Positions 11,705 to 52,654 of a stretch of 64,000 nucleotides of DNA are shown here, one piece after another. The DNA is from Eledone cirrhosa (lineage: Eukaryota). Each line of letters starts with the position of its first letter. The stretch's first letter is position 1. A program made the translations under genes and the position numbers. Location of the stretch: positions 303,924,001-303,988,000 of the forward strand of contig OZ024741.1 in NCBI GenBank assembly GCA_964016885.1. The letters run 5' to 3'. The notes below the pieces were generated by a model. That model searched no databases and was not told the origin of the DNA. It worked only from the letters and a program-made list of their open reading frames with translations.

Positions 11705-11705
11705 A

Positions 11706-14644: not shown

Positions 14645-15203
14645 CCCATGGTCGGGTCGTTGACGACTAAACTGGCAACCCCACCAAGGTTTCTTGGTGA
14701 GGAGGGTGACTTTGGACATCCTGCAGGACTAAAAACAAAACCTGTCAAAGGGCAAAGGAGCTCTTAAGAGTCAATGGCCATCCAAAATCACCGGGAGAGA
14801 TGACCCCTTAGCCTTTGTCAAGGCAGAATTCTAGGAGAAGGAAAACTCTGATATAACACCTGCAACCCTGATGGTATCCAATGATGTTGACTTGTTCTTC
14901 TTTTTGGTAAATATCATCTTGGTTAAGAGAGTGGGACTGACTTTGTGCAGTGCCTTTGCTCACTATAAAAGCTTCACGGCACAGGCATTGCTTTATATCT
15001 GGAGATCTCTCTGCACTTGTCGTCACATGGTACCATGGGCCCAGCATTATGTGTCAATAATTGTCACAAGTGTAGTGTTTGTACCAGAGTTTTCAAGTCG
15101 CTGGCTGGACTAAAAAGTCACACTCGTTCAGCACATCGGTAGGGGTTCTCCTACATGGATATAAAGTAGTGGCCGTACTCGAAAACGAGTTGGCAGCCAC
15201 CAT
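14645..15203 (+). mobile_element. About 560-bp non-coding, non-autonomous element with an RTE-type 3' end, copy 1
   Basis: Near-identical to 41267-41840 and 43541-44117; ends GGCAGCCACCAT then (ATGT)n, like the RTE end at about 55130. Confidence 0.8.
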
Positions 15204-15321
15204 ATATGTAAGCATGTATGTATATATGTATGCATGTATGTATGTAAGTATTATGTATGTAAGTATGTATGTATATATGTATGCATGTATGAATATATGT
15301 ATGTATGTTTTCTCTTTCTCT

Positions 15322-16063
15322 TAATTTCGAGTATATTTTTTTGACCGGCCACCTTCCTGGTGGCAAGGTTGTAAAAGAAAAGAAATTGTCATCCCTTGAA
15401 TCGCAAGAATATTTTGCATATTTTGAAGGTGCCAGCTATCGCAGCCATTTGTAGACTATGAATTAGGGAGCTGTGCTTTTTGTCCGCAAATCCAAGTTCG
15501 GTCATACTTTGGTCCAAGCGGGTTGGTATATAACCCGTAGCACCAATAATGATGGGTATGAAGCTAAAGGTGTATCTTGGATACTGGATTTGTAAGCTCC
15601 TCATCAATGGTCCGTAGATGTCCTCCTTCTCCTGTATTTTTCTGACAACGTTTACATCAAGTGGGCAGCTGATCTCCACAACAGAACACGTTTTCAATGT
15701 GTGGTCCCAAACTACAATATCAGGCCGGTTGTGCTTTAATTTGGTGGCAGTTTTTATTTTCAGGTTCCACCAGTATTCCTTAGTGCCATCTGTCTCAATA
15801 TATTCTTCCTCGTTTGTTGTTAATTTTGTTTTCCGAAGTGCGTTCCAGATAGTTCTAGCTATCCCATCGTGTCTCATGGGGAGGTAGTAGCGAGATGACA
15901 TTCTTTCGCAGCTGGCAACAATGTGGCTACATCCTCGATCTTTGTTTTACATAGCCTACATTTATTGTCAGCTGCTGGCCCTCCTCTTTTGTGCAGCAGA
16001 TATTTGGTAGGGAGTTCTTGTTCCTGTATTGCATAGAGATATCCCTCAAGGTGTGATGTCATA
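15322..16063 (-). mobile_element. R4/Dong-like non-LTR fragment (zinc knuckle plus restriction-like endonuclease)
   Basis: EGYLYAIQEQEL, CRLC..H...C, RHD, HNRPDIVVWD...VEISCP, IPIIIGATG; (ATGT)n on both sides. Confidence 0.85.
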
Positions 16064-16086
16064 AATGTATGTATGTATGTATGTAT

Positions 16087-16552
16087 GCCTAAGCAAAGCT
16101 GGACTCGAAAGTCATCTTCGCAGTCATAAAGTAAGACCAGTGGTTGACTACCAGGCTGCTGTTGGAGATGCTACTCATCATGCTTGCCAAGCATGTGGTA
16201 GAGAATGTAAATCAGCAGGAGGGCTCAAACGACATGCAAAAGTACATGAACTCCAACCACAGCCGGCTATTCCCAGTGAATGTTTTGGTTGCCGACTCTG
16301 TGCAAGACATTTTAGATCATTGGCTAGACTAAAAAGCTACATTCGATCGCAGCGCTGTTAATTGCTATCGTGTGTGTGTGTATAGATATGTTTATGTGTG
16401 TGCGTATGTGTGTATATATATATATGTATATTATTATTGTTGTTGTTGTCGTTATTATTATTGTTGTTATTATTATTATTATTGTTATTAATATTTTTTT
16501 TCTCGTGCAATGGCCATACTCGATAACGAGAGGAGGGGGGGCAGCCATCATG
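16087..16552 (+). mobile_element. RTE-like 3' terminal fragment with about 3 C2H2-like fingers
   Basis: SKAGLESHLRSH, CQACGRECKSAGGLKRHAKVH, CRLCARHFRSLARLKSYIRS; ends GGCAGCCATC(ATGT)n; preceded by (ATGT)n. Confidence 0.7.
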
Positions 16553-22975: not shown

Positions 22976-22976
22976 T

Positions 22977-30400: not shown

Positions 30401-30668
30401 AACACCACCACCACAAACACCACCACCACAAACACCACCACCACAAACACCACCACCACAAACACCACCACCACCACAAACACCACCACCACAAACACCA
30501 CCACCACCACAAACACCACCACCACAAACACCACCACCACAAACACCACCACCACCACAAACACCACCACCACAAACACCACCACCACAAACACCACCAC
30601 CACAAACACCACCACCACCACAAACACCACCACCACAAACACCACCACCACAAACACCACCACCAACA
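27500..30668. repeat. Satellite of AAA(CAC)4-5 units (15/18 bp), about 3.2 kb
   Basis: Direct reading; produces the spurious poly-H/K, P/Q/T, V/F and W/C ORFs. Confidence 0.98.
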
Positions 30669-32487: not shown

Positions 32488-33163
32488 ATGTCGATGATGG
32501 AAAACTACTTATGTGGTTTCGAAAAAGAACTGCTTGACTTTTGCTATGAGAGTGTCGGGTCATACGACACAGGCTTTGAAGAGGATTTCCTTGACGATTC
32601 TCCCTTCGGCTCCAACGGAGAGGAAAATGACTGTTCCGATCTGGAAAACAGTTTGCAGACGTATGTCTCATTGGATGATGGATACTCGGCTTTCATTGAT
32701 AGGACTATCGATCTTGGTATGGGCGTTGGTGACGTTGGCGTTGGCTGTGTCGGCAGCGTTGGCAGTGGTGGAGGCGGTGTTATTGATGGAGGAGAGGAAG
32801 AGGACGAAGATGAATACGAAGAAGAAGAAATATCTGGCCGGAGAAAAGCTGGATTCGGGCCAATACGAGGAAAACCGGTGAGGAAAGCCTTACAGAGACG
32901 GGCGGCGAACATGCGCGAGAGGCGACGTATGAAATCCATCAACGATGCATTCGATAAGCTGCGCACGTGCATACCGGACACGGTGACCACGGAACGGCGT
33001 CTCTCCAAAGTGGACACGCTCCGGTTGGCCATACGCTATATTGAATACTTGAGCGATCTAGTACAAAGCTGTAACGAGTACGGGGCAGACAAAAGGATGA
33101 CGAAAAGCCCAAGACATCAGGAGAAGGTGATAATGTGGTGCCACCTGACGACACAAACCGAGG
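32488..33163 (+). CDS. ptf1a: Ptf1a-family bHLH transcription factor, coding exon 1
   Basis: b[31 protein letters not shown]...[22 protein letters not shown]; acidic N-terminus; post-helix KVIMWCH matches the PTF1A KVIICH motif; donor G|GTAAGT at 33163/33164; start could also be a following ATG. Confidence 0.9.
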
Positions 33164-33257
33164 GTAAGTGTTACCAAATTACCATTTTCTAATTCGTCCT
33201 GTCTTTATTTTAATTTCGGCATTTTTCTTATTTTTTATATATATGTGTGTGTATGTG

Positions 33258-33343
<86 letters not shown>

Positions 33344-33384
33344 CACACACATATATATAAAAAATAAGAAAATATATATATATA

Positions 33385-33564
<180 letters not shown>

Positions 33565-33567
33565 TAT

Positions 33568-33659
<92 letters not shown>

Positions 33660-33711
33660 GATTTACACCTGAATAAACTTAATGATTATTTGACACCTCG
33701 TCCCTACTTAT

Positions 33712-33745
<34 letters not shown>

Positions 33746-33784
33746 GCACACACATATATGTATATATATATATATACACACACA

Positions 33785-33837
<53 letters not shown>

Positions 33838-33845
33838 CGCTAACA

Positions 33846-33935
33846 AAAGTCTGATGAGCTTTTTATTCTTGAGCCGGGCCTGATCGATACAGATCGAACC
33901 TTGAGCTGATCAATCGTGAAACGCGTGTCACACAC
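33846..33935 (+). ncRNA. Hammerhead-like motif, same family as 19100-19172, in the ptf1a intron
   Basis: GT CTGATGA GC..GT GAAACGCGTGTC|AC; CTGATGA 33851, GAAA 33918. Confidence 0.58.
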
Positions 33936-33978
33936 ACCTAAATAAACGTAATGAAAATTTGGCACCTCAACCATATCC

Positions 33979-34054
<76 letters not shown>

Positions 34055-34099
34055 AATATGGATATGGTTAACGTGCCATATATATTATATATATATATA

Positions 34100-34181
34100 C
34101 ACAGGGTATTCCAAAAAATGTATACATATTTTTATTAGAATGTTGTTGAAGTGTGTATACACCTTTTGGGGACACCCTGTG
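34100..34181. mobile_element. 82-bp Tc1/mariner-type mini-MITE
   Basis: TA-CACAGGGT...ACCCTGTG-TA with imperfect arms of about 30 bp. Confidence 0.65.
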
Positions 34182-34270
34182 TATAGATATGTATATATAT
34201 ATATATATATTAGAAAGTGAGGTTTTTTTACAAAATGAAAAATAACCGAGGTGTCCTACATGAATGAAAG

Positions 34271-34482
34271 TATAAAGAAAAAAAGATGAAATCGAAAATG
34301 CAACTGGAGTCTTATTTTTAAAAATATATATATATTTATTTGGTTTTTAAACCACAGACCCTCCATCTCAACTCTACTTTTGAAAAGCAGAAGAACTGCG
34401 AAACCGGTAAAGGAACCAAATAAATATATATATTTTTTTTTAAAATAAGACTCCAGTTGCATTTTCAATTTCATCTTTTTTT

Positions 34483-34488
<6 letters not shown>
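34271..34488. repeat. Inverted repeat, arms about 75 bp
   Basis: tataaagaaaaaaagatgaaa...ttatttggtt versus aaccaaataa...tttcatcttttttctttata. Confidence 0.85.
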
Positions 34489-34534
<46 letters not shown>

Positions 34535-34574
34535 CTATGTAGCTATGTATCTATGTAAGTATGTATGTATGTCT

Positions 34575-34850
34575 TCTGGGAGTGAAGGACCCCTAGCCTT
34601 TGTCAGGGCATTCTTCTTGGAGAAAGCAAGTCAGTAAACTGGGATAACTCCGACATAAAACCTGCGGCTCAGTAGTTACCGATGATGTTGATTTTTTCTT
34701 CTTTTCGGGTTATAGCTACTGTCGCTCAGAGAGTGGGATTGGCTCAGTGCACAGTCTTTCCTCACTTTAAAAAATCTTCACGCACAGGAATTGCACGTGA
34801 GAATTAATTAATAATTATTAATAATGTTATATTGTGCAATGGCCATCATG
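34575..34850 (+). mobile_element. Related RTE-tailed non-autonomous element, second subfamily
   Basis: Shares GAGAGTGGGATTGGC...GTGCA...TTTCCTCACT...CTTCA.GCACAGG and ends GGCCATCATGTATGT; sister copy at 38722-38965 (minus), diverged one at 43150-43450 (minus). Confidence 0.7.
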
Positions 34851-34989
34851 TATGTCTTATGAATTATCGAAGCCAGCCCAGTAACATGATAACAGCTTAA
34901 ATCACCCATAGTGAAACTCATATGTTTATTATACTACTTCTCGGAATTGAGAGATCACAGCTCCGATACTAATGGATACATATGGTTAG

Positions 34990-35323
34990 AAATGTCTCAG
35001 TAAAGAATCGTTGGACAGATTTTTATACGGGCAAAAACCAACCGACAGGAGATCAAAAGGCAGATCTCTCCGAGCAAGATGGTTGGATAACATCCATCAG
35101 CTTGGCTGGTCTCGCTTGGGGGGATCCAACCGGCGGATCAGTTGGAGACGGTTGCTTCTGGCAGGAACCGCTGGAGGGAGTGTTTGCGGACTCTGTCCCT
35201 CCACGTCTCTCTCAAGAAGAAGAAGAAGAAGAAGAAGAAGAAGAAGAAGAAGAAGAAGAAGAAGAAGAAGAAGAAGAAGAAGAAGAAGAAGAAGAAGAAG
35301 AAGAAGAAGAAGAAGAAGAAGAA
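34990..35323 (+). mobile_element. Short LINE 3' remnant with a (GAA)n tail; relatives at 36064-36280 (plus) and 61705-61880 (minus)
   Basis: KGRSLRARWLDNI...A..RNRWRECL, GRPRTRWLDII...WKAL, typical of RTE-group C-termini. Confidence 0.55.
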
Positions 35324-36769
35324 GGGAGTGCCTTAATATCCAGCTCTATTATGAATCACGTTATGTTAGTGCTACTAGCAATAATACTGATCTCTAGGTT
35401 GTTTTTCTGCTAGATGTGTGTTTCGTAATGTATCTATCAATATATACAGATGTATGAAAACTACATGTTTGACATACGCGTGGCCCAGTGGTAAGAGTGT
35501 TGGACATACGATCATAATTGTTTCTACTTTTGGCACAAGGCCAGCAATTATTCCAGTGTATTACTGGTACTTTATTTTATCGACCCCGTAAGGATAAAAG
35601 GCAAAGTTAACCTCGGCGGGATTTTTATATTCATAATATATTGTATATTATATGTATAATATCATTATATATATATTATGATATATACAATATTATTATA
35701 TATTATATATATATAATATATCATATATTATATATATAATATATCATATATTATATATATAATATATAATATATTATTTATTATATATTATATATTATAT
35801 ATATTATATATTATATATATAATATATTATATATTATATATATAATATATTATATATATAATATATTATATATATAACATTATACATAGGATAATATAGA
35901 GTGAGGCATACTATTTCTGAAAAGACGCTGGAATGCATTTTATCTCATAGGTCTGCTTGATCAGGGACTTCTTGGGGTTAAATAACAGTTTCTAATTTTG
36001 GTCCAATGCCAGCAATTTAGGGGAAAGGGGAAAATCGATTTAAATCGACCAAGGTAATTGACAGGCAGGCCCCGCACTAGATGGCTGGATATCATCAAGG
36101 AAGATCTCCAGAGGCTCGACATCGCCATGGAGGATGCAGAGGGTTGGCACGGGACCACCAGTGATGGAAGGCACTGATGTACTTGGTCGGCTCTATACAT
36201 GATGATGCTTCTGTAATCACTGACCTAGGATGACCCCTGTCTCATAGAGCAAGAACAAGAAGAAGGAAGAAGAAAGAAGACAAGTAAATGACTGGTACTT
36301 TATTCTATCGACCTCGGAAGAATGAAAATCAAAGTTGACCTTGGCGAGATTGAACTCAGAACATAGAAACCCGGAAGAAATAACCCAAATAATATGTATA
36401 AAACCTTTCAAAATACAATGCAGGGTGGCGATTTTTTTAAGATTCACCCAGCCCGCCGCCCTCTTGCGGCTAAATAACAATTACATCATTCTCATTATTC
36501 TTTCGTCACCGAATATAGTTGTCTTTCTTGTCAACTTAAATTGCACAGATCGATTTGCAGCCGGTCAAGCATTTTTTATTTATGTATTTTATTGTTGCTG
36601 CTTTTTTCTTTCTTTTTTTTTTTGGCATATCTTACACTGCTTATATGTGTGTATGTGTATGTGTCACTGGTTTTTTTTTTCGTGTGTATGTGTCTATGTG
36701 CGTATATTTGAGTGTGTGTGTGTGTGTGTGTGTGTGCATATATGCATACATACACAAATACATGATGGC

Positions 36770-37990
36770 TGCATCTCGATTTCAAGACTTGCCACCACCT
36801 GATCCCTCTCTCACACATGTGTGGCACAAATATGACTCTTTAGCTCTAACAAGGGTTTACATTCCTTTCTGCATATATTGAAGTGATGAACTTACTTCCA
36901 CTTTAGCTCCCTGTTTTGTTTGTTGAGTTTTCAAATGTCGTTGGCGTCCGCCGGCCGAGACACAGTGTTTTCCGCACATCCGACAGGAAGAAATACCAAA
37001 GAGACCATAATTAACAACATATTGTACGTGACATCTATGATGACTTCTAAGACCATCTTTACTGAAGCACATCCGGCCACACTCATTGCACATAAAGTCA
37101 TTTGGGGCATCTGAAAATCTAGATAAAGTAATATTGTGTAGACTCTTACTCAGACCCTCTTTGACTTTTCCTGCTCTGCACGAGATTTTTCAGATTCATA
37201 TTTTCCATTAAAAACAATTTTCCTCTAGGATGATCAATTTAAGACAATGCCTTTCCAGTTATCTTCTCTTATTTTTGAGTTTATCAGCTCTTTGATGCAG
37301 TTTTTATACCTGAGTTTTGGTTTATGCCTTGGCCATTTGCCTTTGACTATCTCCCCGTACAGCAACTGCCTAGGAATACGATGGTCTGGCATTCCTACAA
37401 CATGGCCACTCCACCACAATCTTTATTGAATTGTTAGAGAATCAATACTTTCAACATGACTTCGTTCCAGCACTTCAACATCACTCATATGAGATTGTCA
37501 ATGGATACCAAGTATTCGGCGAAGACACTGTTGATGTTCAAGTATTTTTTATATTCAGTGGTATGTGACTCAAGTTTCACATGCATATATCAATAAAAAC
37601 AATATACATGATCTGTACACCTTTAACTTTGTATCAACGGAATTTCCACGTCGAACCCAGAGACACCTATATAATTTGCTCAAAGATTCACTTGTTCTCT
37701 TTAGTCGTAAAGAGATTTTATCACCAAGGGTGTTTGTTATGTTAACTGTGCTGCCTAAATACAGATTTATCCACAACCTTCAATGTTTTGCCATACACAT
37801 AAATGCTAATTACCACAAACATATTTGGAGTTTGTCTTTTATAAAACACCACCATCAATGCATCTTTCCAGTCTTGGGGAACGCTTTCTTTATCCAAACC
37901 TTACGTATCAGATTTCAGTACTCAGCACAAATACCATCCCTCCACGGCGATTTTCCATTATTGAGTTGTTTTCTAACCACTTTCATTTCC
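36770..37990 (-). mobile_element. Degraded RTE LINE 3' fragment with C2H2-like zinc-finger tail
   Basis: YLGST, TKLKVYRSC..LIYACET, WSGHVVGMPDHRIPRQLLYGE, CNECGRMCFSKDGLRSHHRCH; ends GCAGCCATCATGTAT. Confidence 0.8.
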
Positions 37991-38202
37991 TACAATGTAA
38001 GACTTTCTACTAGTACATCATTTGTAGGCCAACCCACAAACAAACATACATACATACATACATACATACATACATACATACATACATACGTACGTACGTA
38101 CGTACGTACGTACATACATACATACATACATACATACATACATACATACATACATACATACATACATACATACATACATACATACATACATACATACATA
38201 CA

Positions 38203-38715
38203 TCTGGAACCCACTTCGGAAAACAAAATTAACAACAAACGAGGAAGAATATATTGAGACAGATGGCACTAAGGAATACTGGTGGAACCTGAAAATAAAA
38301 ACTGCCACTAAATTAAAGCACAACCGGCCTGATATTGTTGTTTGGACCACACATTGAAAACGTGTTCTGTTGTGGAGATCAGCTGCCCACTTGTGTAAAC
38401 GTTGTCAGAAAAATACAGGAGAAGAAGGACATCTACGGACCATTGATGAGGAGTTTACAAATCCAGTATCCAAGATACACCTTTAGCTTCATACCCATCA
38501 TTATTGGAGCTACGGGTTATATACCAACCCGCTTGAACCAAAGTATGACTGAACTTGGATTTGCTGATAAAGAGCGCAGCTCCCTAATTCATAGTTTAGC
38601 TGGCACCTTCAAAATTTGCAAACATTCTTGCGATTCAAGGGATGACAATTTCTTTTCTTTTACAACCTTGCCACCAGGAAGGTGGCCGGTCAAAAAAAAT
38701 TTACTCGAAATTAAG
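38203..38715 (+). mobile_element. R4/Dong-like fragment, same family as 15322-16063
   Basis: Near-identical RLE-coding sequence and 3'UTR (ccaggaaggtggccggtcaaaaa); starts at a (CATA)n tract. Confidence 0.85.
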
Positions 38716-38721
38716 ATGATG

Positions 38722-38965
38722 ATGGCTGCCCCCTCGTTATCGAGTATGGCCATTGCACGATATACCATTATTAATAATTATTAATTAATTCTATCGTGCA
38801 ATGCATGTGCGTGAAGATATTTTTAAAAGTGAGGAAAGACTGTGCACTGAGCCAATCCCACTCTCTGAGCGACAGTAGCTATAACCCGAAAAGAAGAAAA
38901 TATCAACATCATCGGTAACTACTGAGCCGCAGGTTTTATATCGGAGTTATCCCAGTTTCCTGAGT
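38722..38965 (-). mobile_element. Second-subfamily RTE-tailed element joined tail-to-tail to an R4-like 3' end
   Basis: Reverse complement of 34640-34850; (CATA)n at its 5' side. Confidence 0.7.
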
Positions 38966-39047
38966 TACATACATACATACATGCAAACAAATAAACATAC
39001 ATACATACATACATACATACATACATACATACATACATACATACATA

Positions 39048-39161
39048 CATGGTGGCTGCCAACTCGTTTTCGAGTACGGCCACTACTTTATATCCATGTA
39101 GGAGAACCCCTACCGATGCGCTGAACGAGTGTGACTTTTTAGTCCAGCCTGCGACTTGAAA
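39048..39161 (-). mobile_element. 5'-truncated 3' end of the same non-autonomous family
   Basis: Matches 43541-43653; (CATA)n on both sides. Confidence 0.8.
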
Positions 39162-39196
39162 CATACATACATACATACATACATACATACATACAT

Positions 39197-39601
39197 TTAT
39201 GCCTGTGATTGTTGGGGCACTGGGATATGTTAGTAACTGCCTCAATACAAATCTTGAGAAGGTAGGCTTCACAGGAACAGAAAGAACACAACTAGTTAGG
39301 AAACTACAAGTACAATCCATTAATGGAACAGTAAAAATATGTAAAACATTCCAAAAATGTTGCATCTAATAACTGCATATACACATGTAGAGATACAAAG
39401 CATATACACATGCACACATACAACTCAAAACATCCACATCCACACATACAATAACACCCATATCTACACATGCATGCATGCAGACATGCAGACATAATCT
39501 ACCTAGTTGATGTGTAAATTCCAATGAGAGTCTTGTGTCTATGTTAGAAACCGACTCACTCTCTATTGGGAAAAAATTTGTGAAATTATAAAACCAGAAG
39601 A
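39197..39601 (+). mobile_element. 3' fragment of a second R4-like family
   Basis: FMPVIVGALGY...GTVKICKTF aligns with IPIIIGATGY...GTFKICKIF of the first family; distinct 3'UTR; (CATA)n on both sides. Confidence 0.7.
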
Positions 39602-39849
39602 ACATACATACATACATACATACATACATACATACATACATACATACATACATACATACATACATACATACATACATACATACATACATACATACATACA
39701 TACAGGTGTATGTGTATTTGTACATATTAGATATATATTAGATAGCTACTATACAGTTCGTCCAAACAAGAATCGATCTTCCAGAGTGCTTAGTTGTCAT
39801 AACAACACTACATTGTACTGGTTCGTGTTGAAGCTCAAATATAACGTAG

Positions 39850-41230
39850 CATAACCACATAAACACAACAACCACATAAATACAACAATGACCATATAAC
39901 CACAACCACATAAACACAACCACATACCACTTAAACACAACCACAACCACCCAACCACTACCACAACCACATAGACACAACCACATACCACTTAAACACA
40001 ACCACAACCACACAACCACTACCACAACCACACAACTACTACCACAAACAACCACATAGACACTACCACAACCATACAACCACATAAACACAACCTCAAC
40101 TACACTGCCACAACCACATAAACAAAAACACAACTACATAAACACAACCACAACCACTCGACCACAACCACACAACCATAACCACGTAAACACAACCACA
40201 ACCACACAACTACAACCACATAGACACAACCACAACCACAGCCACAACAACATAAACACAATCACAACCACACAACTACAACCACATAGACACAACCACA
40301 GCCACGGCCACAACAACATAAACGCAACCACAACCACACAACTACAACCACATAAACACAACCACAGCCACAACCACAACAACATAAACACAACCACAAC
40401 CACACAACTACAACCACATAGACACAACCACAGCCACAGCCACAACAACATAAACACAACCACAACCACACAACTACAACCACATAAACACAACCACAAC
40501 CACACAACTACAACCACATAAACTCAACCACAGCCACAGCCACAACAACATAAACACAACCACAACTAATAACACAAAAACAACCACAACCGCAACAACA
40601 TAAGCACAAGCACACGACCACAGTCACAGCACAACCACAACATAAACACAACCACAACAACCACAATACGACAGCCACAGTTTTACTATACAAACACAAG
40701 CACGACTACACAAACACAACCCAAACTACAATTATACCACTTCACAGTACACTACCCTCCTTAATCATAAACAGGCTTGACAAATATTTGATTTTCAATT
40801 AGCGATATGTATGTATGTGTGGATGTACGTATGTATGTATGTATGTATGTATGTATGTATGTATGTATGTATGTATGTATGTATGTATGTATGTGTGTGT
40901 GTATGTATGTATGTATGTATGTATGTATGTATGTGTATATGTGTGGATGTACGTATGTATGTATGTATGTACATATGTATGTATGTATGTATGTATGTGG
41001 CTGTGGTTGTGTTTGTGTGGTTGTAGTTGTGTGGTTGTGGTTGTGTTTATGTTGTTGTGGCTGCGGTGGTGTTTATGTGGTTCTAGTTGTGTGGTTGTGG
41101 TTGTTTTTATGTTGTTGTGGCTGTGGCTGTGGTTGTGTGGTTGTGGTTATGTTTACGTGGTTATGGTTGTGTGGTTGTGGTCGAGTGGTTGTGGTTGTAT
41201 TTATATAGTTATGTTTTTGTTTATGTGGTT
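39850..41230. repeat. Degenerate CAACCA-based minisatellite (39850-40730) with an inverted copy (40998-41230)
   Basis: Direct reading. Confidence 0.9.
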
Positions 41231-41266
41231 GTCAAGTCACCAGTTGGTGCTACTGGTAACATATAT

Positions 41267-41840
41267 CCCAGTACAACCTGTCCCATGGTCGGGTCGTTGG
41301 CGACTAAACTGGCAACCTCACCAAGGTTTCTTGGTGAGGAGGGTGACTTTGGACATCCTGCAGGACTAAAAACAAAACTTGTCAAAGGGCAAAGGAGCTC
41401 TTAAGAGTCAATGGCCATCCAAAATCACCGGGAGAGATGACCCCTTAGCCTTTGTCAAGGCAGAATTCTAGGAGAAGGAAAACTCTGATATAACACCTGC
41501 AACCCTGATGGTATCCAATGATGTTGACTTGTTCTTCTTTTTGGTAAATATCATCTTGGTTAAGAGAGTGGGACTGACTTTGTACAGTGCCTTTGCTCAC
41601 TATAAAAGCTTCACAGCACAGGCATTGCTTTATATCTGGAGATCTCTCTGCACTTGTCGTCACATGGTACCATGGGCCCAGCACTATGTGTCAATAATTG
41701 TCACAAGTGTAGTGTTTGTACCAGAGTTTTCAAGTCGCTGGCTGGACTAAAAAGTCACACTCGTTCAGCGCATCGGTAGGGGTTCTCTTACATGGATATA
41801 AAGTAGTGGCCGTACTCGAAAACGAGTTGGCAGCCACCAT
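41267..41840 (+). mobile_element. About 570-bp non-autonomous element, copy 2
   Basis: Same sequence as 14645-15203; (ATGT) tail. Confidence 0.8.
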
Positions 41841-41852
41841 GTATGTATGTAT

Positions 41853-42137
41853 GTTCTTCTGGTTTTATAATTTCACAAATTTTTTCCCAATAGAGAGAGA
41901 GTCGGTTTCTAACATAGACACAAGACTCTCTCATTGGAATTTACACATCAACTAGGTAGATTATGTCTGCATGTCTGCATGCATGCATGTGTAGATATGG
42001 GTGTTATTGTATGTGTGGATGTGGATGTTTTGAGTTGTATGTGTGCATGTTTATATGCTTTGTTTCTGTACATGTGTATATGCAGTTATTAGATGCAAAA
42101 TTTTTGGAATGTTTTACATATTTTTACTGTTCCATTA
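41853..42137 (-). mobile_element. Shorter copy of the second R4-like family 3' end
   Basis: Reverse complement of about 39320-39601; (ATGT)n on both sides. Confidence 0.75.
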
Positions 42138-42317
42138 TGTATGTGTGTATGTACGTATGTATGTATGTATGTATGTATGTATGTATGTATGTATGTGTGG
42201 ATGTACGTATGTATGTATGTGTGTATGTATGTGCGGATGTACGTATGTATGTATGTGTATGTATGTATGTATGTATGTATATGTGTATGTACGTATGTAT
42301 GTGTGTGTGTGTGTGTA

Positions 42318-42350
<33 letters not shown>

Positions 42351-43540
42351 ATGTATGTGTGTGTGTATGTACGTATGTATGTATTATGTGTATGTATGTG
42401 TGTGTGTGTGTGTGTTTGAATGCATGCAGAGGCCTCGTTTGCCTTAAAAACGCGGGGGGGGGGGGGGGGGCAAACCAACATTTGTTGATTCTTAAAGGAG
42501 CATTAATTGCTTATGGTGCCTTTCCCGGACCCTACATAAGTAAAACTTTACGCTAATTAAATTTTATATATTGAAATGAAGTTCGGATACAAAAAAATAA
42601 GCTTAAAAAGAATTTATTATATCAAATAAACAAAAATCAAAAGATGGTTTGTTGCCCATTCCTGAACAAGTGTGTGTGTGGGGGGGGGGGGGGGCTTGTC
42701 CCCTAGTACCCCCTGAAACAAGGTCCTTGAATGTATGTATGTATGTGTATGTGTATGTATGTTTGAATGCATGTATGTGTGTGCATGTATGTATGTGCAT
42801 GTATGTATGTGTGTATGTATGTATATGTATGCATTTATGTATGTTTGAATACATCTATGTATGCATACATACATACGTACGTACATACATACATAATTGT
42901 TTCTACTTTAGGCACAAGGCCAGCAATTACCCAGTGCATTACGGGTACTTTATTTTATCGACCCCGTATGGATGAAAGGCAAAGTCAACCTCGGCGGGAT
43001 TTGAACTCAGACCGTAAAGGGACGTAACTATGCTGGAAAGCATGGCGTCCGACCCTCTACCGATACTGCCAATCCACCATACATAATGACTGCATCTCAG
43101 TTTCGAGAATTGCCATCCCTTGACATTTTTCTGATACATGGATGGCCCTACCAAGAACTTAGAACCCTTTCTGCATATGCTGTAGGGAAAGAAAAAAAAT
43201 AAAGGGCCATGCTAACGTAACACACGTGAAAGTCGATTAGATCAAGTGATGCCTGTGCTTCAAGATTTTTTAAGAGAAGAAAGGCTTTGCACTGGGCCAA
43301 TCCCACTCTCTGAACAACGGTGACAGGTATCCAAAAAGAAGAACAGGTCAACGTAATTGGTTGCCATCGAGTCGCTAGTTTTACATGAGAGTTTTCCTTC
43401 TTCTAGAATGATGTACTAACAAGGACTAGGGTTCTCTCACTCCTGGTGGGCTAACCAAACCAAGTATACATACATACATACATACATACATACATACATA
43501 CATACATACATACATACATACATACATGCATACATACATA

Positions 43541-44117
43541 CATGGTGACTGCCAACTCGTTTTCGAGTACGGCCACTACTTTATATCCATGTAGGAGAAC
43601 CCCTACCGATGCGCTGAACGAGTGTGACTTTTTAGTCCAGCCAGCGACTTGAAAACTCTGGTACAAACACTACACTTGTGACAATTATTGACATATAGTG
43701 CTGGGCCCATGGTACCATGTGATGACAAGTGCAGAGAGGTCTCCAGATACAAAGCAATGCCTGTGCCGTGAAGCTTTTATAGTGAGCAAAGGCACTGCAC
43801 AAAGCCAGTCCCACTCTCTTAATCAAGATGATATTTACCAAAAAGAAGAACAAGTCAACATCATTGGATACCATCAGGGTTGCAGGTGTTATATCAGAGT
43901 TTTCCTTCTCCTAGAATTCTGCCTTGACAAAGGCTAAGAGGTCATCTCTCCCGGTGATTTTGGATGGCCATTGACTCTTAAGAGCACCTTTACCCTTTGA
44001 CAGGTTTTGTTTTTAGTCCTGCAAGATGTCCAAAGACACCCTCCTCACCAAGAAACCTTGGTGGGGTTGCCAGTTTAGTCGCCAACGACCCGACCATGAG
44101 ACAGGTTGTGCTGGGAT
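43541..44117 (-). mobile_element. About 575-bp non-autonomous element, copy 3
   Basis: Reverse complement of copies 1 and 2; (CATA)n on both sides. Confidence 0.8.
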
Positions 44118-44213
44118 ACATACATACATACATACATACATACATACATACATACATACATACATACATACATACATACATACATACATACATACATAAA
44201 AACATACATACAT

Positions 44214-45417
44214 TTGGTCTGCTGAACTTGTCATTGCAAGAACTAAGTGAGATGGATGTAAGAGCCCACAAGCTTCTCAGTGTTACTGGAAACTTTAACA
44301 TCAATGGTGAATAGGTTATACTTCTCACGCAAGGAAGGTGGCCGTGGTCTAAAATCCATATTAACATCATACGACACCCGAATAGTAACACTGAAGCAAC
44401 ATCTTCAGCAGAAGAAAAAGGTCAGCAACCATCTTTCCCAGGTCTATGAGCACGAAGAAAATAATATCATTAGGATAGCCACTGATCTGGAGGAGAGATA
44501 TGGAATAAGGCCTGATATAAATCTCTCTCCCAGGGACATTGGAAGATCCTATTCAATGTTCAAACAAGATTAAAAAAAAATGGACCGATTTACAGAGAAA
44601 GTTGTGCATAGGTACCTGAGACGAAAAACACAGACCATAGAGGGGATAAATCATTTAAAAAGCCTGGCATGAAGTTCCGACAAGTTTATGACATCCCACC
44701 TTGAAGGATATCTCTATGCAATACAGGAACAAGAAATGCCTACCAAATATCTGCAACACAAAAGAGGAGGGCCAGCAGCGCCAATATATGTAAGCTATGT
44801 AAAACAAAGATCGAAGATGTTAGCCACATTGTTGCCAACTACGAAAGAATGTCGTCTCGCTACTACCTCCCTATGAGACACGATGTGATAGCTAGAACCA
44901 TCTGGAACGCACTTAGGAAAACAAATTAAAAACAAATGAGGAGAAATATGTTGAGATAGATGGCACTAAGGAATACTGGTGGAACCTCAAAATAAAAACT
45001 GCCACCAAATTAAAGCACAACCGGCCTGATATTGTTGTTTGGGACCACACATTGAAAACATGCTCTGTTGAAGAGATCAGCTGCCCACTTGATGTCAACG
45101 TTGCAAAAAAAAATACAAGAGAAGGAGGACATCTACAGACCATTGATGAGGAGTTTGCAGATCCAGTATCCAAGATACACTTTCATCTTCATACCCATCA
45201 TTATTGGAGCTACAGTTTATATACCAACCCGCTAGGACCAAAGGATGACTGAACTCGGATTTGTGGACAAAGAGCGCAGCTCCCTAATTCATAGACTATA
45301 AATGGTCGCGATATTTGTCGCCTTCAAAATTTACAAAACATTCTTGGGATGATAATTTCTTTTCTTTTACTATTGCTGCCAGGAAGGTGGCCGGTCAAAA
45401 ATGTACTCGAAATTAAG
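44214..45417 (+). mobile_element. R4/Dong-like fragment, longest copy
   Basis: RLYFSRKEGGRGL thumb-region motif, EGYLYAIQEQE, NRPDIVVWD; frameshifts and stops; (CATA)n on both sides. Confidence 0.87.
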
Positions 45418-45520
45418 AGAAAGAGAGACATACATACACATGTCATATATACACACATACACATATCATACATACATACATACATACATACATACATACA
45501 TACATACATACATACATACA

Positions 45521-45551
<31 letters not shown>

Positions 45552-46025
45552 CTAACAGGTGTTTCGTAACTAACACATATCATTTTTCCTAAAAATGATA
45601 GAGTGGTGATTATAACTGTGTATGCGTTTGTATATCTATTTAAACAAGTATATTTACACATAATCATATTCATTACACAAATGCATGCATCAATATATTA
45701 TGTGTGTGAATGCCTATATGTGTGTGTGAGTGTATGTAATATATACACGTATATATATATATTTTAAAAAAATATAGGTGTGACACTCGAGTTGTGATAT
45801 ATTAGTAAAAAGGAAAAGAAAATGGTGACAATTTTTCCCAGTGAAAAATAGTTTAATTAGGAATAAGTATAAATTAGTAATAAGTATTGGTTAATATTCA
45901 GTTTTAGTTTTAAGGTTTTACCGGTTGCGTATTTCTAATGCTTTTCAAAAATAATTTTGAGATAGAACGCTTCTGATGTTTGCTCTAATCTATCTCTCTC
46001 TCTCTATATATATATATATATACAT

Positions 46026-46060
<35 letters not shown>

Positions 46061-46096
46061 CATAGAATAGGGAAAATGCGAAGTTCGGTGTAGATG

Positions 46097-46132
<36 letters not shown>

Positions 46133-46321
46133 CATCTACACCGAACTTCGCATTTTACCTATTCTATGTATATATATATATATGTGTGTGTGTGTGTATG
46201 TATATATATATATATGTATATATATATAATAAGTGGTCCAGTAGATTGTGTGTGTGAGGGTGTGTAATATATATATATGAGTGTGTGTGTATATATTACA
46301 CATACTCACACACGCACACAA

Positions 46322-46391
<70 letters not shown>

Positions 46392-46611
46392 AGAAGTTAT
46401 ATTTAATTTGTTGGGATACAACAAGCAAATATTTTTATAACTGATATAAACCACTCAACAAATTATTGGAGTAAAAATACGATATATTAACAAATGGAAA
46501 CTATATTTATAAAACCATATTTATTTCATTATACATATTTCATATATCCTCGAGCTTCCAACAGAAATGGTCGCATTCTTTAAGGGTATGTCAATATTTA
46601 TTTATAAAACT

Positions 46612-46678
46612 GATCTATATCTGATGAAAGCGCACCATAATTTGACTTGGTGTCCTTGAAATATGTATAATGAAATAA
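46612..46678 (+). ncRNA. Minimal hammerhead, same family as 17444-17508
   Basis: CTGATGA 46621-46627 ...TGGTGTCCTT GAAATATGTATAATGAAATA; 5' strand of helix I eroded. Confidence 0.62.
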
Positions 46679-47016
46679 ATATGGTTTTATAAATATAGTT
46701 TCCATTTGTTAATATATCGTATATTTATATATGTATATTTATATAAAATTATATCTGTATACATATATAATAATATATATATACCCATTCGTGCATGTGT
46801 GTGCGTCTTTGTGTGTTTATTCATAGATTTTCTCTCTCTTAACCCACCCCACCCCACCTTAACCTCTCCCCTTCTCTCATACATTCAAACACGCACGCAC
46901 ACGCACACACTCACATACACACATACACACACACACATGCACGTACATACACATTAAGCAAACAAGTGTGATTTATTCGGTAAACCGACAAAACCACTTG
47001 GTGGAGTAAGCCATGT

Positions 47017-47019
47017 AGC

Positions 47020-47106
<87 letters not shown>

Positions 47107-47107
47107 T

Positions 47108-47154
<47 letters not shown>

Positions 47155-47158
47155 TGTT

Positions 47159-47202
<44 letters not shown>

Positions 47203-47225
47203 TGCAGTAGTAGTAGTAGTAGTAG

Positions 47226-47260
<35 letters not shown>

Positions 47261-47307
47261 GCAGTAGTAGTAGTAGTAGTTGTTGTTGTTGTTGTTGTTG
47301 TTGTTGC

Positions 47308-47382
<75 letters not shown>

Positions 47383-47385
47383 TGC

Positions 47386-47479
<94 letters not shown>

Positions 47480-47487
47480 GCTGTTGC

Positions 47488-47532
<45 letters not shown>

Positions 47533-47535
47533 TGC

Positions 47536-47567
<32 letters not shown>

Positions 47568-47574
47568 CAGTTGC

Positions 47575-47608
<34 letters not shown>

Positions 47609-47619
47609 ATAGCAGTTGC

Positions 47620-47675
<56 letters not shown>

Positions 47676-47682
47676 CAGTTGC

Positions 47683-47736
<54 letters not shown>

Positions 47737-47737
47737 T
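47017..47737. repeat. Compound (AGT)n/(TGT)n microsatellite
   Basis: Direct reading. Confidence 0.98.
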
Positions 47738-48173
47738 GCCGTGTTCTGAAGGAGCTGGTCAACATTTTGTTGGAAGTAACCCGAGATGAGTGAGCTCGGG
47801 GCCTAGGAGGTATTAACGACATCAAGTACGGGTACACAGTATTTCGGGTGGTGTGGGGGAGGGGGCTCAGAATCTTTCTTTAATACGGGTACAATTGATT
47901 CAAATGGACTTTCTTTGTTCCCCCTAGATACACAATAGTCAAACAGCTTCTTGTCTTGTTTTTACATGTGTTCCTTCTTTTGTATAGTTTGTTGTTTTTA
48001 CCTTTTATTTATTACATTAAAGCAAACATAGTTCTTTGGTTCTATGTCCGTACGTATGAATGTTTGTCTATATATATATATATATATGAGTGTGTGTGAG
48101 TGTGTGTGTGTGTGTGTATGTGTGTGTGTAGTCGAACATATATGCATAAAGTGGGTACGTAATACACACACGC

Positions 48174-48250
<77 letters not shown>

Positions 48251-48335
48251 CATACATATTCATGAGGAAATATGCATATACATACATATAGTGTGTGTGC
48301 GTGTGTCTGTGTGTCTGTGTGTTTGTGTATGTGCG

Positions 48336-48447
<112 letters not shown>

Positions 48448-48509
48448 CGTGTTTGTATATGTGCTGGTGCGTGCCTATGTGTGTAAGTGTGTTTGATTTT
48501 ACAAACAAG

Positions 48510-49230
48510 TGGAAGATTATAGTGAGTGCAAATATATGTTTATTGTAATAGTTAAATCAGTGAGTGAGCGTGTTGGTGAAATGGTTGTGCACGTGTGTTG
48601 GTGTGACACTGAATGGCAGGTGGGTGCTGAAAACTGTGAAGTTGTGGATGGAGTGTCCGGTGGAGCAGAAATATCGGGCGACTGGAGACTGGTTGCCGAG
48701 CCGAATGTCCCGGAGTTGCTTGGTGAACCAGTCTGCTAAAAGTTGACAACCAGTTTGTCCAATGTAGATGGCTTCGCATAGCATGCAACGTAGCCCATAG
48801 ACAAGATTTAATAGGTGCAGCGGAACACGTTTCTGACCCAGAAGATCTGACCGTTGTATCTAGTGATGGTTGTGGTGTTGTTGATGAGGTTGCGCGTGTG
48901 GCAGCGGAGTCGGGAGCAGAAGAGGGATTAGGGGACGGTGTTGGGTAAGGAAAGAAGCGGCGAACGAGATTACTTGAAGGAGAGAAGCGATGGGAAGGGG
49001 GAATAGGGGAGGTGGAGGGATCCGACTGGAGATGACGGAAGAAACAGAGGATCGTCCTCTGGAGGGGCAAAGGAGGGGGTAGTAGGTAAAGGATAATGGG
49101 AGTCGTTTGTTGGTGGCGATGGTATTGTGAGAGGGTGGTGGTGCGGTGAGACTTCAAGGAGGCAGTGACTGCAACTTGGACCAGAGTGGGGGTAACCTCA
49201 CCAAGTGGATAGTTTAGCCCTGTATTGAGT
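48510..49230 (-). mobile_element. Penelope-like element remnant (GIY-YIG endonuclease region)
   Basis: CEAIYIGQTG..LADWF..QLRDIR....SPVARYFCSTGHS; upstream FRHLQSDP linker typical of PLE RT-endonuclease junctions. Confidence 0.75.
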
Positions 49231-49782
49231 CTACATGGGTAATGTAGTAAATATGTATCACAACTCTTTCTTCAGATTGAGTGCTCTCCCAACTTGGGGT
49301 ATTATTTATCAAACTACACTACAATATACTACAATATATATATATATATATATATAGTAGTATAGTTTGATAAATAATTGTTTCTACTTTTTGGCACAAG
49401 GCCAGCAATTATCCCAGTACATTACTGGTGCTTTATTTTATCGACCCCGTAAGGATGAAAAGCAAAGTTAACCTCGGCGGGAATTGAACTCAGATCGTAA
49501 AGGGACGTAACTATGCTGGAAAGCATAATCCAACCCTCTACCGTTACTGCCAATTCACCGCCCTTTTGTAGTTTGATAAATAATATCCCATATATATATA
49601 TATACGTAGGTTCTAATAGTGACTATCTGTAGAACTTTGGTGGTTAACCTATACTTTTGTCAGACAATATGATTAATTACTTTATGAATCGATATTTTAA
49701 TACATATATATGTGTGTGTGTGTGTCCTAAACAAGAACTTTCATGAAAATTAATAATTTGTTTCCTCTTTTTGTTCTTTCAG

Positions 49783-49952
49783 ATTTATTCAGTGACTGTT
49801 GGCCGGAGACAGAGCTTGTGGGACATTCTCTTTCGTGGGAAAATGAAAGCGCCCCAAAAGTCTCCCACGACAAAAAACATACAGCTCGTACATGGCACCC
49901 AGAAATCCCAAACGCATCGGATTTTGTAAACCTAGCAAGCTATGGAAGCTGA
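49783..49952 (+). CDS. ptf1a: Ptf1a coding exon 2 with RBPJ/Su(H)-binding tryptophan motifs
   Basis: Polypyrimidine tract plus TTTCAG acceptor at 49782; phase matches exon 1 (G+AT = Asp); encodes GHSLSW (C1) and TWHPE (C2-like); TGA ends at 49952. Confidence 0.9.
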
Positions 49953-50148: not shown

Positions 50149-52654
50149 GTAGTGGTGGTGCTGGTGTTGGGGATAATGATGGTGTAGGTGATGAAATAAC
50201 GCCGATGATGATAATGATTGATGCAGGTGATGACGATGAATAGGAAAATGACAATGAGGGTGATGATGATGGTGATGATAATAATGATGATGGTGGTGGT
50301 GGTGATGATGATGATGATTATAGTCATAATGTTGCGATGACGAGGATGATAATGATGATAATGATGATGATGTTCGTGAAAGACACTATGGTAAATATAA
50401 TGATGTCCTCAATTTAACCAAAATGGCCAATTGAATAACATAATGGATCAAATGACGTTCATATCCCGTGCCAGCCATTCCTGTTTTGATGTTTATTCTT
50501 TAGCGCCAACCTGATCAAGCTAACCTATGATCAAAGACATTCTAGATGTGACCATCACATCTTTTCTTCTCAGAGTTATGCTTCTTTTCTTCAGGCGACA
50601 AGATGTAATTTCAGGGAAACTTGGTGCGTTTTATGTGAAAGAAGCTTCGTTGATTGTGGACCCGAATAGCTCTGTTTCCACCGATCTTTTTAAATATGTG
50701 TGAACCATTGTTTCATTGCATAAGTGCTGTATAACCAGCATTTCATTACCTTATCCAACTCAGATCCTCTTATACGTCAAATTCTGGCTCATAGACTACT
50801 GCCATCCTCGGGATTAAAAGTATCTCTCATCACTTGAAAATATCCAATACGCCGTAATATTCCATAATAACGCAAAGAAATATATTCTTCACGGAACTTC
50901 TTTTTTTGTTTTTTTTAATGTCCTATATTATTATGGTCAGCATCTTACGAATCAACTCAGCACTTTTCAACTGGTACTTTTTAATAAACATCGAAAGGAC
51001 GAAAGACAAAGTTGACTTAGCGAGATTTAGACTCAGAAAGTGTAGAGAGCCGTTAAAAATACCGCAAAGCAATCTATCCGACGTTCTAACGACTCGGCCG
51101 ATTCGCTGCCATTTAATATGAACTACGAGGCGCCCAAACGTTTACCTGTCAAAAGGGTTTATTAAGATTATACATAAACATCGCACAATCAAATTTCTTC
51201 GAACTTGATGAATTCAAGTTTTGTATGTTAAATAAATATATTTTATGTGATTTAAAATGATATTATGGTGATTCCAAATGATAAATATATTCATCTTACG
51301 CGATTTAAAAATATAAATAGAATTATGAATTTTTAATGTATGTTAGCTTCAAAACAAGTTTTTTTCCTGGTGTAATGGTTGTGCAGCCGTCCGGCATACC
51401 ACAGGAGTGTGAACAAGCCCCACGGTAGTTACTGTCTACTTTACCTGACTCTAGAGGGTTTATATATCCAGTTTGCTCGACCATTTTACATTCAACTAAC
51501 AAACATTCAAAATTCAAAATCTGTTCAACACTTCATGAATACGATTGTTTTTCGTTTTTTTTTTTTTGTTTTTTTAATATAATTATATTTTGTGACTGGA
51601 CGTAAGAACGTAAGAGAAGTATGTACAATTTTTAAAGAAAAGACTGATGAATTAGAATATTTTTTTTATTACTTTTACTTTTACTATTGAAGTAAATTGT
51701 AGACAAAACCTTCATGACTTAAGACTAAAAAAATTAAACCAATTTATCCGAACCTTAAATATGCCATACTTACTAATGTTGCCAAACTACTTCGTATTTA
51801 CGATAAAAGTGAGCTTAATCGTTTTGCTGAATGAATAAATTTGTTTTAAAAACTGATAATATATTTCTTTTATTTTAACTGTTGTTGCGAGTCTTCCTTT
51901 GTATTGAATGTAGTGAATGTCAGATGGAGACAGAAAACAAAACCTACCGGTGAATGTTAACAAATTTCAAAGAAAGATCATTTGAAATTATTAAGAATAT
52001 ATTTTACAGGAATTATTTCCATGTTTAAAGGACAAATCTTAGTAAAAGTATTTCTAATAGTAAAAGTATTTCTACGTCCTCTGATCAAAGCAGACTTGTG
52101 AAGTCTGTGCTTCATTGATGAAATCAAATAAAAACCAAAACATGTCCATAGATGTCATCTCAGACATCTTCTTGGCTTTAACCTGCTTTCTCTTGGTTAC
52201 TTTTATATCTTAAATATTCATTTCCTTCTTCTGAATGGCTCTCACATGATCTGCATCAACACCAGCCAGGAATGAAGACACCCGATCTTCTCGCTGTGTC
52301 TCAAGGAAAGCTTCGTCTTTAGATGGGACATCTTTTCGTTCGGGACGTCTTGGCTTGCAATGTCAAAAGTTTCCTCGAGATCAACTTTATATATACATAT
52401 ACAAATATATACATATATGAACATATATGAACATATATATGTATATACACATATGAAGGCGCGTCGTTTAGCAGTTAGAGAATTCCACTCACAATCGTAA
52501 GATTGTGAATTCGATTCCCGGACCGAGCGATGCGTTGTGTCCTTCAGCAAGCCACTTTATTTCACGTGCTTCCACTTCACCCAGCTGTACAAATGAGCTG
52601 CGGCATCACTTTACCTTTCCCTTAGACTACATCGGCAAGGAGCGGGGAAACAGA

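Follow-up and report, generated by a model that had tools for sequence, protein, structure and literature searches.

Opposite polarity of R4/Dong-like and RTE-derived retroelements on the (ACAT/ATGT)n tracts of an Eledone cirrhosa intron

The 64,000-nucleotide stretch of Eledone cirrhosa DNA analyzed here (GenBank assembly GCA_964016885.1, contig OZ024741.1, positions 303,924,001 to 303,988,000; below, the window) contains a nest of retroelement fragments at 38040-45550, inside the 16.6-kb intron (33167-49782) of a basic helix-loop-helix (bHLH) gene whose two exons join in frame. The fragments belong to two groups, R4/Dong-like elements and bipartite elements derived from RTE, and both lie in one microsatellite that reads (ACAT)n on one strand and (ATGT)n on the other. 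The reading that we favor, with a probability of roughly 0.68, is that both groups target (ACAT/ATGT)n that was there before them, each with a fixed polarity and the two in opposite directions. We directly observed the anatomy of the copies, their polarity, their flanks, one target duplication, and conserved flanks in relatives. A first-pass annotation of this DNA had proposed that the RTE clade creates the tract on which the R4-like elements depend. It was right that both groups use one microsatellite and that the RTE-type elements have ATGT-type ends, but the dependence it proposed is mostly not supported: the RTE-type copies lie mostly inside older tracts, and relatives of the R4-like elements sit in (CATA)n or (CTTA)n.

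Two element groups on one microsatellite

The R4/Dong-like group consists of family B (three copies, 85 to 93% alike by self-comparison and alignments) and family B2 (two copies, 97.5% alike), and every copy in the window is 5'-truncated and broken (Table 1). The copies encode CCHC, RHD, and PD..E..K endonuclease motifs, and the reverse transcriptase (RT) core is absent from them; Pfam and Protein Data Bank (PDB) searches with a 185-amino-acid fragment of B gave no match. Full-length relatives of B have a single open reading frame (ORF) of about 1,150 amino acids with RVT_1 (Pfam) plus a C-terminal restriction-like endonuclease, and the solved structures closest to them in the PDB are R2 proteins. 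A regular expression found no N-terminal C2H2 finger in the related proteins P0001 to P0009 or in the longest ORFs of 15 related loci (about 10 of full length), the window copies themselves having no N terminus, and Pfam gave no match to a Myb/SANT-like N-terminal domain on P0001, L002, and L003, for which no profile-profile search was made. The nearest named relative of family B is a protein from Argonauta hians (60%), and the best unnamed matches are at least as close. The 15 related loci (L001 to L015) came from a metagenome scan; no R4 relatives were found in the viral or prokaryote contigs searched. Two of the loci, L002 and L003, are full length, share 50 to 53% amino acid identity with B, and have (CATA)n at both flanks; as in B and B2, their ends are purine-rich (...GA) ahead of the tract. 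In L001, L004, L005, L009, L011, and L013, which fall on two separate tree branches, (CTTA)n stands on one side. A tree of 180 columns from the C-terminal region, with no named outgroup, places the B copy at 15311, L001 to L007, and ten further proteins in one clade (100/100). Searches turned up no named reference element of the clade, and B and B2 are called R4/Dong-like provisionally, by domain architecture and microsatellite insertion.

The RTE-type group is made up of family A, elements D, D/C, D2, D3, and C, and two old coding remnants. The four copies of family A are 96.7 to 98.6% alike, lack a long ORF, and keep a C2H2 coding relic. Family A appears to be a bipartite, nonautonomous element of the RTE type, because an RTE 5' untranslated region (5'-UTR) domain is joined to the C2H2 relic and to a stem-loop end (z -3.7). 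Its positions 41467-41489 match exactly, over 23 nucleotides, a stretch of OegopSINE annotated as RTE5' in the supplement of PMC5786205, where the core word of the RTE 5' motif occurs 76 times. That motif was absent from the viral contigs searched, and the RTE 5' region is common to D, D/C, D2, and D3 at 69 to 77%. The sequence GCAGCCAYC with a stem-loop is common to A, C, D/C, and the remnant at 36764-38040, which we presume from its motifs to belong to the RTE clade and for which searches returned no homologues. No tRNA or CORE head was detected on A by Rfam alone, which gave nothing at the gathering score and placed none of the best 150 of its 193 weak matches on A, and no A/B-box scan was made. 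A second old RTE-like coding remnant (weak RVT_1) occupies 52620-55134; D3, oriented the same way, is fused to the 3' end of this remnant.

The two groups follow a simple polarity rule. RTE-type elements end in GCCAYC, as the first-pass annotation had it, usually followed by ATGT(A), and R4-like copies run with (ACAT)n on their own strand. Fifteen of the 16 copies scored in the window adjoin a tract on the predicted strand, and none adjoins one on the wrong strand. The annotation had also stated that neighbors are always in opposite orientation; this is true of all 7 RTE/R4 pairs, 4 of them head to head and those of the second nest at 14645-16549 among them, but 3 of the 10 pairs are RTE/RTE and share an orientation (38721/39051, 43141/43544, and 52620/54884). 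Opposite orientation in mixed pairs and same orientation in like pairs both follow from the fixed polarity of each group on the tract. Opposite orientation carries no information on which clade made the tract, and the proposed refutation of the loop, a comparison of adjacency with copy number, fails to discriminate, because both models would pass it. A claimed tail-to-tail joint at 38716-38721 is real in that the ends of B and D/C meet there, but it contains no ATGT, B is without its last 10 nucleotides or so, and the D/C tail is (ATC)3; the joint fits either D/C having run into B or a later deletion.

If RTE tails had founded the tracts, the 5' flanks of the RTE-type copies should be ordinary DNA. 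A tract was found at the 5' flank of 8 of the 11 RTE-type copies and of 4 of the 5 R4-like ones (with 92% purity in the remaining copy), compared with a window-wide background of 1.5%, and (ACAT)n stands at the 3' junction of 4 of the 5 R4-like copies. Flanks were scored with a 14-bp test and the background with 12 bp, and we claim no P value because copies share tracts. Only 1 of 12 copies of a control family, E, which resembles a short interspersed nuclear element (SINE), adjoins a tract. A perfect 11-bp target duplication flanks the isolated D copy at 34576; it opens with the ATGT run and follows the element end without any intervening tail unit. Against the 6 to 12 bp looked for in bipartite, nonautonomous RTE elements, this is the only clear duplication among the 11 copies. 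By the criterion described in PMC2887409, the run predates the insertion; a repeat born from the tail was thus not seen in the one copy that could be scored, and the other 10 of 11 were not scorable, being in repeats where a duplication is unreadable or showing none. The variant ATGTAAG is common to the tracts on both sides of the A copy at 14645, and all four window occurrences of G[TC]GGATGTACG are in the two tracts flanking the 40998-42137 block. Such shared rare variants indicate that young copies split older tracts. There are 25 merged ACAT/ATGT tracts in the window, of which 14 adjoin an element end, 5 adjoin an RTE 3' end, and 11 adjoin neither group. On the 3' side of the five R4-like copies, two face an RTE tail across a tract, one meets the (ATC)3 tail, and two have no RTE end.

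Sequencing runs gave a second view of the locus at 41200-42140. Four of the 23 listed runs were aligned to it, namely, the contig sets X18 and X19 (one sample) and two restriction site-associated DNA (RAD) read sets, under the same species label; runs X1 to X17 (shares 0.05 to 0.23) were left out of the read evidence. A and B2 are high copy in the aligned runs, and full-length A begins near 41230. Loose 5' ends of full-length A gave an (ATGT)n consensus in 5716 and 5976 RAD reads (agreement, 0.60 and 0.58; 0.35 at a restriction-site artifact), and B2 3' ends gave (ACAT)n (agreement, 0.77 and 0.79; median loose length, 116). Among 15 of the 171 joints were A-A tandem (1 start), B2-B2 tandem (5 to 6 starts), and A/B2 head-to-head (1 start) arrangements, and an A/B2 tail-to-tail joint (2 starts) that possibly represents alleles of the 41233-42137 locus. 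The X18 and X19 sets also contain (52 contigs each) a second A subfamily whose 5' end, at 41247-41251, is shorter and differs from that of the first, with TATG-like sequence before it too. Loose ends at 42102/42103 (5726 and 3651 reads, X21) were considered as a subfamily with random flanks and rejected: they coincide with an AATT site where molecules end, a restriction-library artifact, of which the joints at 41682-41697 are likewise suspect.

The nicking and pairing chemistry, the order of insertion, and any effect on intron size are inferred. On the model of target-primed reverse transcription, an R4-like endonuclease would nick the ATGT strand and prime reverse transcription there, leaving a sense strand that runs with (ACAT)n, and an RTE-type RNA ending in (AUGU)n could pair with the nicked ACAT end, leaving a sense strand that runs with (ATGT)n. 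Pairing of tail and target has been proposed for RTE elements in PMC6007223. Local targets would multiply because each insertion likely leaves a tract on both sides; slippage would lengthen these tracts, and nests would grow. The first tract could arise by ordinary microsatellite birth, and plausibly the feedback between the two groups is mutual, with founding of the tract by RTE unnecessary.

Weighing tract-first insertion against the alternatives

Several observations weigh against the tract-first reading. The background of 1.5% is taken over the whole window and is far higher locally inside the nests, the counts come from a single window with nonindependent copies, and 3 of 11 RTE-type copies have no 5' tract. 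Ages from private substitutions do not order the pairs cleanly: the A copy at 14645 (0.5%; confidence interval [CI], 0.1 to 1.6) and the B copy at 15311 (1.6%; CI, 0.7 to 3.2) overlap, and the A copy at 43544 stands at 2.2% versus 7.8% for the B copy at 44214, a value that may reflect subfamily. In the X18 and X19 contigs the 5' consensus of A is TA-rich and mixed (24 and 21 contigs), and at one joint (2 starts) a copy of A lies within another where there is no ATGT. Family A therefore also inserts outside ATGT tracts and can carry ATGT to new locations. RAD reads represent copies close to restriction sites alone, come from an unstated number of loci, and may derive from an organism other than that of the window; their starts are GCATGC-like sites, which could favor degenerate tracts (0 sites in 3186 bp of window tracts versus 8 in 64 kb). 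Among the related loci, 7 of 15 have no tract at their ends, several of these being on contigs that stop near the ORF, and the hosts of L002 and L003 may also carry ATGT-tailed RTEs.

The one-way niche construction of the first-pass annotation, in which the R4-like lineage relies on (ATGT)n tracts mostly started by RTE tails, for instance through insertion into (TA)n arrays, is in our view unlikely. It can draw on the 9 of 11 RTE-type ends that have ATGT-like sequence within a few bases, on the TA-rich contig flanks and the A-in-A joint, on D3, which ends in ATGT and then (TA)n, and on RTE tails being known founders of microsatellites (PMC2887409). In one unselected part of a table of Octopus bimaculoides RTE insertions (PMC9115989), 3 of the 4 nonnull targets among 18 rows are TA or TACA repeats, for what is as far as known a different family. 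The geometry of the A copy at 41233 and the B2 copy at 41855 also fits, and the (ATGT)4 between them at 41839-41854 is the strongest candidate for an R4 insertion into an RTE tail. Against such a loop stand the 8 RTE-type 5' flanks that are already ATGT, the target duplication at 34576, and the shared tract variants; so do the two R4-like copies with no RTE end 3' and the one at the (ATC)3 tail, the 11 tracts that adjoin no element end, the ATGT consensus 5' of A in the RAD reads, and R4 relatives elsewhere that keep the same or a related flank. We give similarly low credence to a genome-scale form, in which RTE would turn abundant (TA)n into (ATGT)n and so supply most targets of an (ACAT)n-specific R4/Dong lineage, each insertion by either group doubling the target and the loop driving microsatellite-rich intron growth. 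Some seeding of ATGT into (TA)n by RTE-type elements is nonetheless possible, given the contig flanks of A and the O. bimaculoides targets.

It is improbable that the RTE-type elements have no real targeting at all, with wide insertion and nests arising through survival in neutral intron DNA, duplication, inversion, deletion, or assembly collapse. Local rearrangement is evident in the inverted minisatellite copy at 40998-41232, the two polarity flips, and the R4 end deleted at 38716; the 41200-42140 locus is without independent confirmation, as no aligned contig spans it, and RTE sites have been described as seemingly not sequence specific (PMC2887409). Yet the copies differ in 5' truncation point and private substitutions, as independent insertions would, every truncation point joins a correct-strand tract directly whereas family E has no such bias, and mixed joints are present in the raw reads too. 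A reverse dependence, in which R4-like elements add 3' (ACAT)n and extend tracts that RTE-type elements then use, gains something from the long (ACAT)n of B2 3' ends in the reads, the D/C element that seems to have come up against the B terminus at 38716, and the lower divergence of the A copy at 43544 than of its B neighbor, but it is very improbable, because (ACAT)n also borders the R4-like copies where they are truncated 5' (strictly in 4 of 5), making the tract older than the R4 copy, and decay has gone much further in the old RTE remnant at 36764-38040 than in the adjoining B copy at 38204.

Make-up of the nest and other repeats of the window

The bHLH gene, which we tentatively take to be ptf1a from its HSLSW and W-x-P motifs, and the features of the nest are listed in Table 1. 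The nest holds 5 RTE-type and 4 R4-like fragments amid (CATA)/(TATG) tracts; by boundaries that we set, its 7511 bp divide into 2418 bp R4-like, 1878 bp RTE-type, 1338 bp tract, and 1877 bp other DNA. It had been pictured as a chain of retro-fragments with tracts alone between them. A nest does exist, but the quarter of it that is other DNA comprises 1.1 kb of unique and minisatellite DNA, the 235-bp inverted copy of the latter, 300 bp without assignment, and a SINE-like repeat. Because tract polarity reverses near 40800 and again near 42860, and because of the inverted minisatellite copy at 40998-41232, the region is two or three nests plus local rearrangement and no single unbroken chain. 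The flipped polarity possibly stems from a plain inversion of 40806-42860, and the 40998-41232 segment is possibly part of that inversion or a templated insertion at the 5' junction of A. The middle block was ruled out as an inverted duplicate of the entire left block, as element order and truncation points differ.

Table 1. Features of the bHLH gene, the 36764-45550 region, and nearby element copies (window positions)
Position	Strand	Feature	Support
14645..16549		Second nest: A (+, 14645-15201), B (-, 15311-16064), RTE-type C (+, 16089-16549); ATGTAAG variant in tracts flanking A	
32488..33166	+	bHLH gene exon 1 (ptf1a-like)	Pfam HLH, E 1e-20; GT donor, phase 1
34565..34858	+	RTE-type D copy 34576-34847, isolated; exact 11-bp target duplication starting with ATGT run	
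36764..38040	-	RTE-type coding remnant, old, heavily broken; end GCAGCCATC-ATGTAT; 5' end adjoins first tract of nest	Translation; weak C2H2; 3' stem-loop z -2.7
38040..38203		(CATA)n tract including TACG variants	
38204..38716	+	R4/Dong-like family B, 5'-truncated; endonuclease region and 3' UTR; final ~10 nt absent	
38717..38965	-	RTE-type bipartite element D/C, 5'-truncated; (ATC)3 tail meets end of B; 94.5% to 34576-34847	
38967..39050		(CATA)n tract; RTE-type copies of same orientation on either side	
39051..39160	-	Family A, terminal 110 bp; (ATGT)n at both flanks; 98.2% to other A copies	
39196..39602	+	R4/Dong-like family B2, 5'-truncated; (ACAT)n at both flanks; no RTE end on 3' side	
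39603..39703		(CATA)25 tract	
39704..40805		Unique DNA surrounding CAACCA-type minisatellite; matches no retro-fragment	
40806..40997		(TATG)n tract, flipped polarity; rare variant G[TC]GGATGTACG in common with 42138-42420	
40998..41232	-	Inverted copy of minisatellite 40110-40372, fused to 5' end of A	blastn 85%, E 1e-89
41233..41838	+	Family A, approximately full length, with RTE 5'-UTR domain, C2H2 coding relic, stem-loop, and GCCACC end	Read pile-up at 41230; Pfam zf-C2H2; fold z -3.7
41839..41854		(ATGT)4, with A and B2 tail to tail around it	
41855..42137	-	R4/Dong-like family B2, 5'-truncated; 97.5% to 39196-39602	
42138..42420		Degenerate (TATG)/(TG) tract, second half of 40806 tract	
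42421..42728		DNA with no self-match in window and no terminal inverted repeat found	
42729..42895		Tract turning from TATG to CATA near 42860	
42896..43130	+	SINE-like dispersed repeat, family E	
43141..43465	-	RTE-type bipartite element D2, older; (ATGT)n 5'; 74-77% to A and D	
43544..44115	-	Family A, (ATGT)n at both flanks; orientation as D2	
44214..45428	+	R4/Dong-like family B, longest copy; frameshifted, 3' end complete, no RTE end on 3' side	
45429..45550		(CATA)n tract, degenerate then pure	
49783..49950	+	bHLH gene exon 2 with HSLSW and WHP motifs	Frame continues from exon 1

Elsewhere in the window, the first-pass annotation had assigned Tx1 elements to GATA repeats and hammerhead elements to TA repeats. 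The former assignment agrees with all three copies (590-6410, 6438-6854, and 17893-18663, minus strand), which are flanked on either side by (TATC)n, read on their own strand. These are Tx1/L1-like elements, of which the first two stand in tandem in one orientation and 590-6410 has RVT_1 and zf-RVT; the Tx1 label is that of the annotation. As to the latter, a repeat family at 9715-10358, 10751-11483, and 21586-22976 does have (TA)n flanks, but its hammerhead was not confirmed, with no Rfam hammerhead or HDV match and no match to a core regular expression. Rfam gave nothing on the window at gathering score, and below it only miRNA-type matches to simple repeats. The 12 copies of family E include those at 11705-11898, 35511-35624, 42896-43078, 49373-49567, and 61108-61699. 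Repeats of palindromic or foldback form, most of them with (TA)n at their borders, occur at 7638-7829, 17046-17239, 25645-25837, 12139-13518, 34275-34485, 46065-46164, and 62799-63090. Upstream of the bHLH gene, a 29-bp tandem repeat lies at 26047-26672 and a CCACCACCACAAACA array of 3.2 kb at 27501-30665.

Comparison with known target-specific retroelements

This locus contributes two features. One is that members of an R4/Dong-like lineage have tetranucleotide repeats, (ACAT)n and (CTTA)n, as targets, a trait conserved in proteins that share only about 50% identity; the other is that RTE-derived elements exploit the R4/Dong-like target tract from the opposite strand. The literature searched yielded no (ACAT)n- or (CTTA)n-targeting R4/Dong element and no two clades on one tract, although subscription papers, Repbase, Dfam, or supplements may hold one. 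Sister lineages with different four-letter targets offer a natural comparison for how the endonuclease reads DNA, and the polarity rule could be applied across the genome as a simple test of the order of insertions and of whether microsatellites and retrotransposons feed back on each other as introns grow. A practical caution is that (ACAT)n markers and assemblies in the host animal will often lie within multicopy flanks.

Dong-R4 and RTE appear among the recently active long interspersed nuclear elements (LINEs) of Octopus vulgaris in Table 1 of PMC13282606, where targets are not stated, and PMC9115989 reports a Dong element as well as an RTE that has a microsatellite at the 3' side. Elements of the R4/Dong clade (Dong of Bombyx, DongAg, DongBg, and the Octopus vulgaris Dong-R4) resemble the relatives of B in the single ORF with RT, CCHC, RHD, and PD..E..K, and B and B2 also insert in a microsatellite with target on both sides. 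R4/Dong elements are described in PMC7998251 as having no N-terminal C2H2 finger, a diverged Myb/SANT-like N-terminal domain, and a (TAA)n target. Dong in the strict sense thus uses (TAA)n, whereas B and B2 of the window use (ACAT)n and sister lineages (CTTA)n; the targets given for R4/Dong in PMC3812793, PMC7998251, and PMC2887409 are otherwise (TAA)n or ribosomal DNA.

Family A is similar to RTESINE1/2, WALLSI3, Bov-A-type elements, and the Ceph-SINE RTE 5' domain (PMC5786205) in combining an RTE 5'-UTR domain with a putative RTE-type 3' end, a stem-loop, and a probable microsatellite tail. It is unlike these bipartite RTE elements in retaining a C2H2 coding relic without a detected head. 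The 3' ends of RTEs carry simple repeats here as in the RTE-born microsatellites of Tay et al. 2010 (PMC2887409), but in the D copy at 34576 the ATGT run is the duplication itself and not a new repeat before it. Most RTE-type copies of the window lie inside pre-existing tail-like repeats, whereas RTE sites elsewhere are described as not sequence specific (PMC2887409) or weakly guided by the tail (PMC6007223). Other microsatellite specialists are known, with the targets TAA for Dong, ACAY for Waldo, TC for Kibi, and TTC for Koshi (PMC3812793). Waldo and Mino of the R1 clade (ACAY/AC) and Kibi and Koshi are specialists of the same kind as the elements described here, and the Waldo motif ACAY is the same. 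Those elements belong to other lineages, whereas here a single tract in a single genome serves two different groups, which lie on it with opposed polarity.

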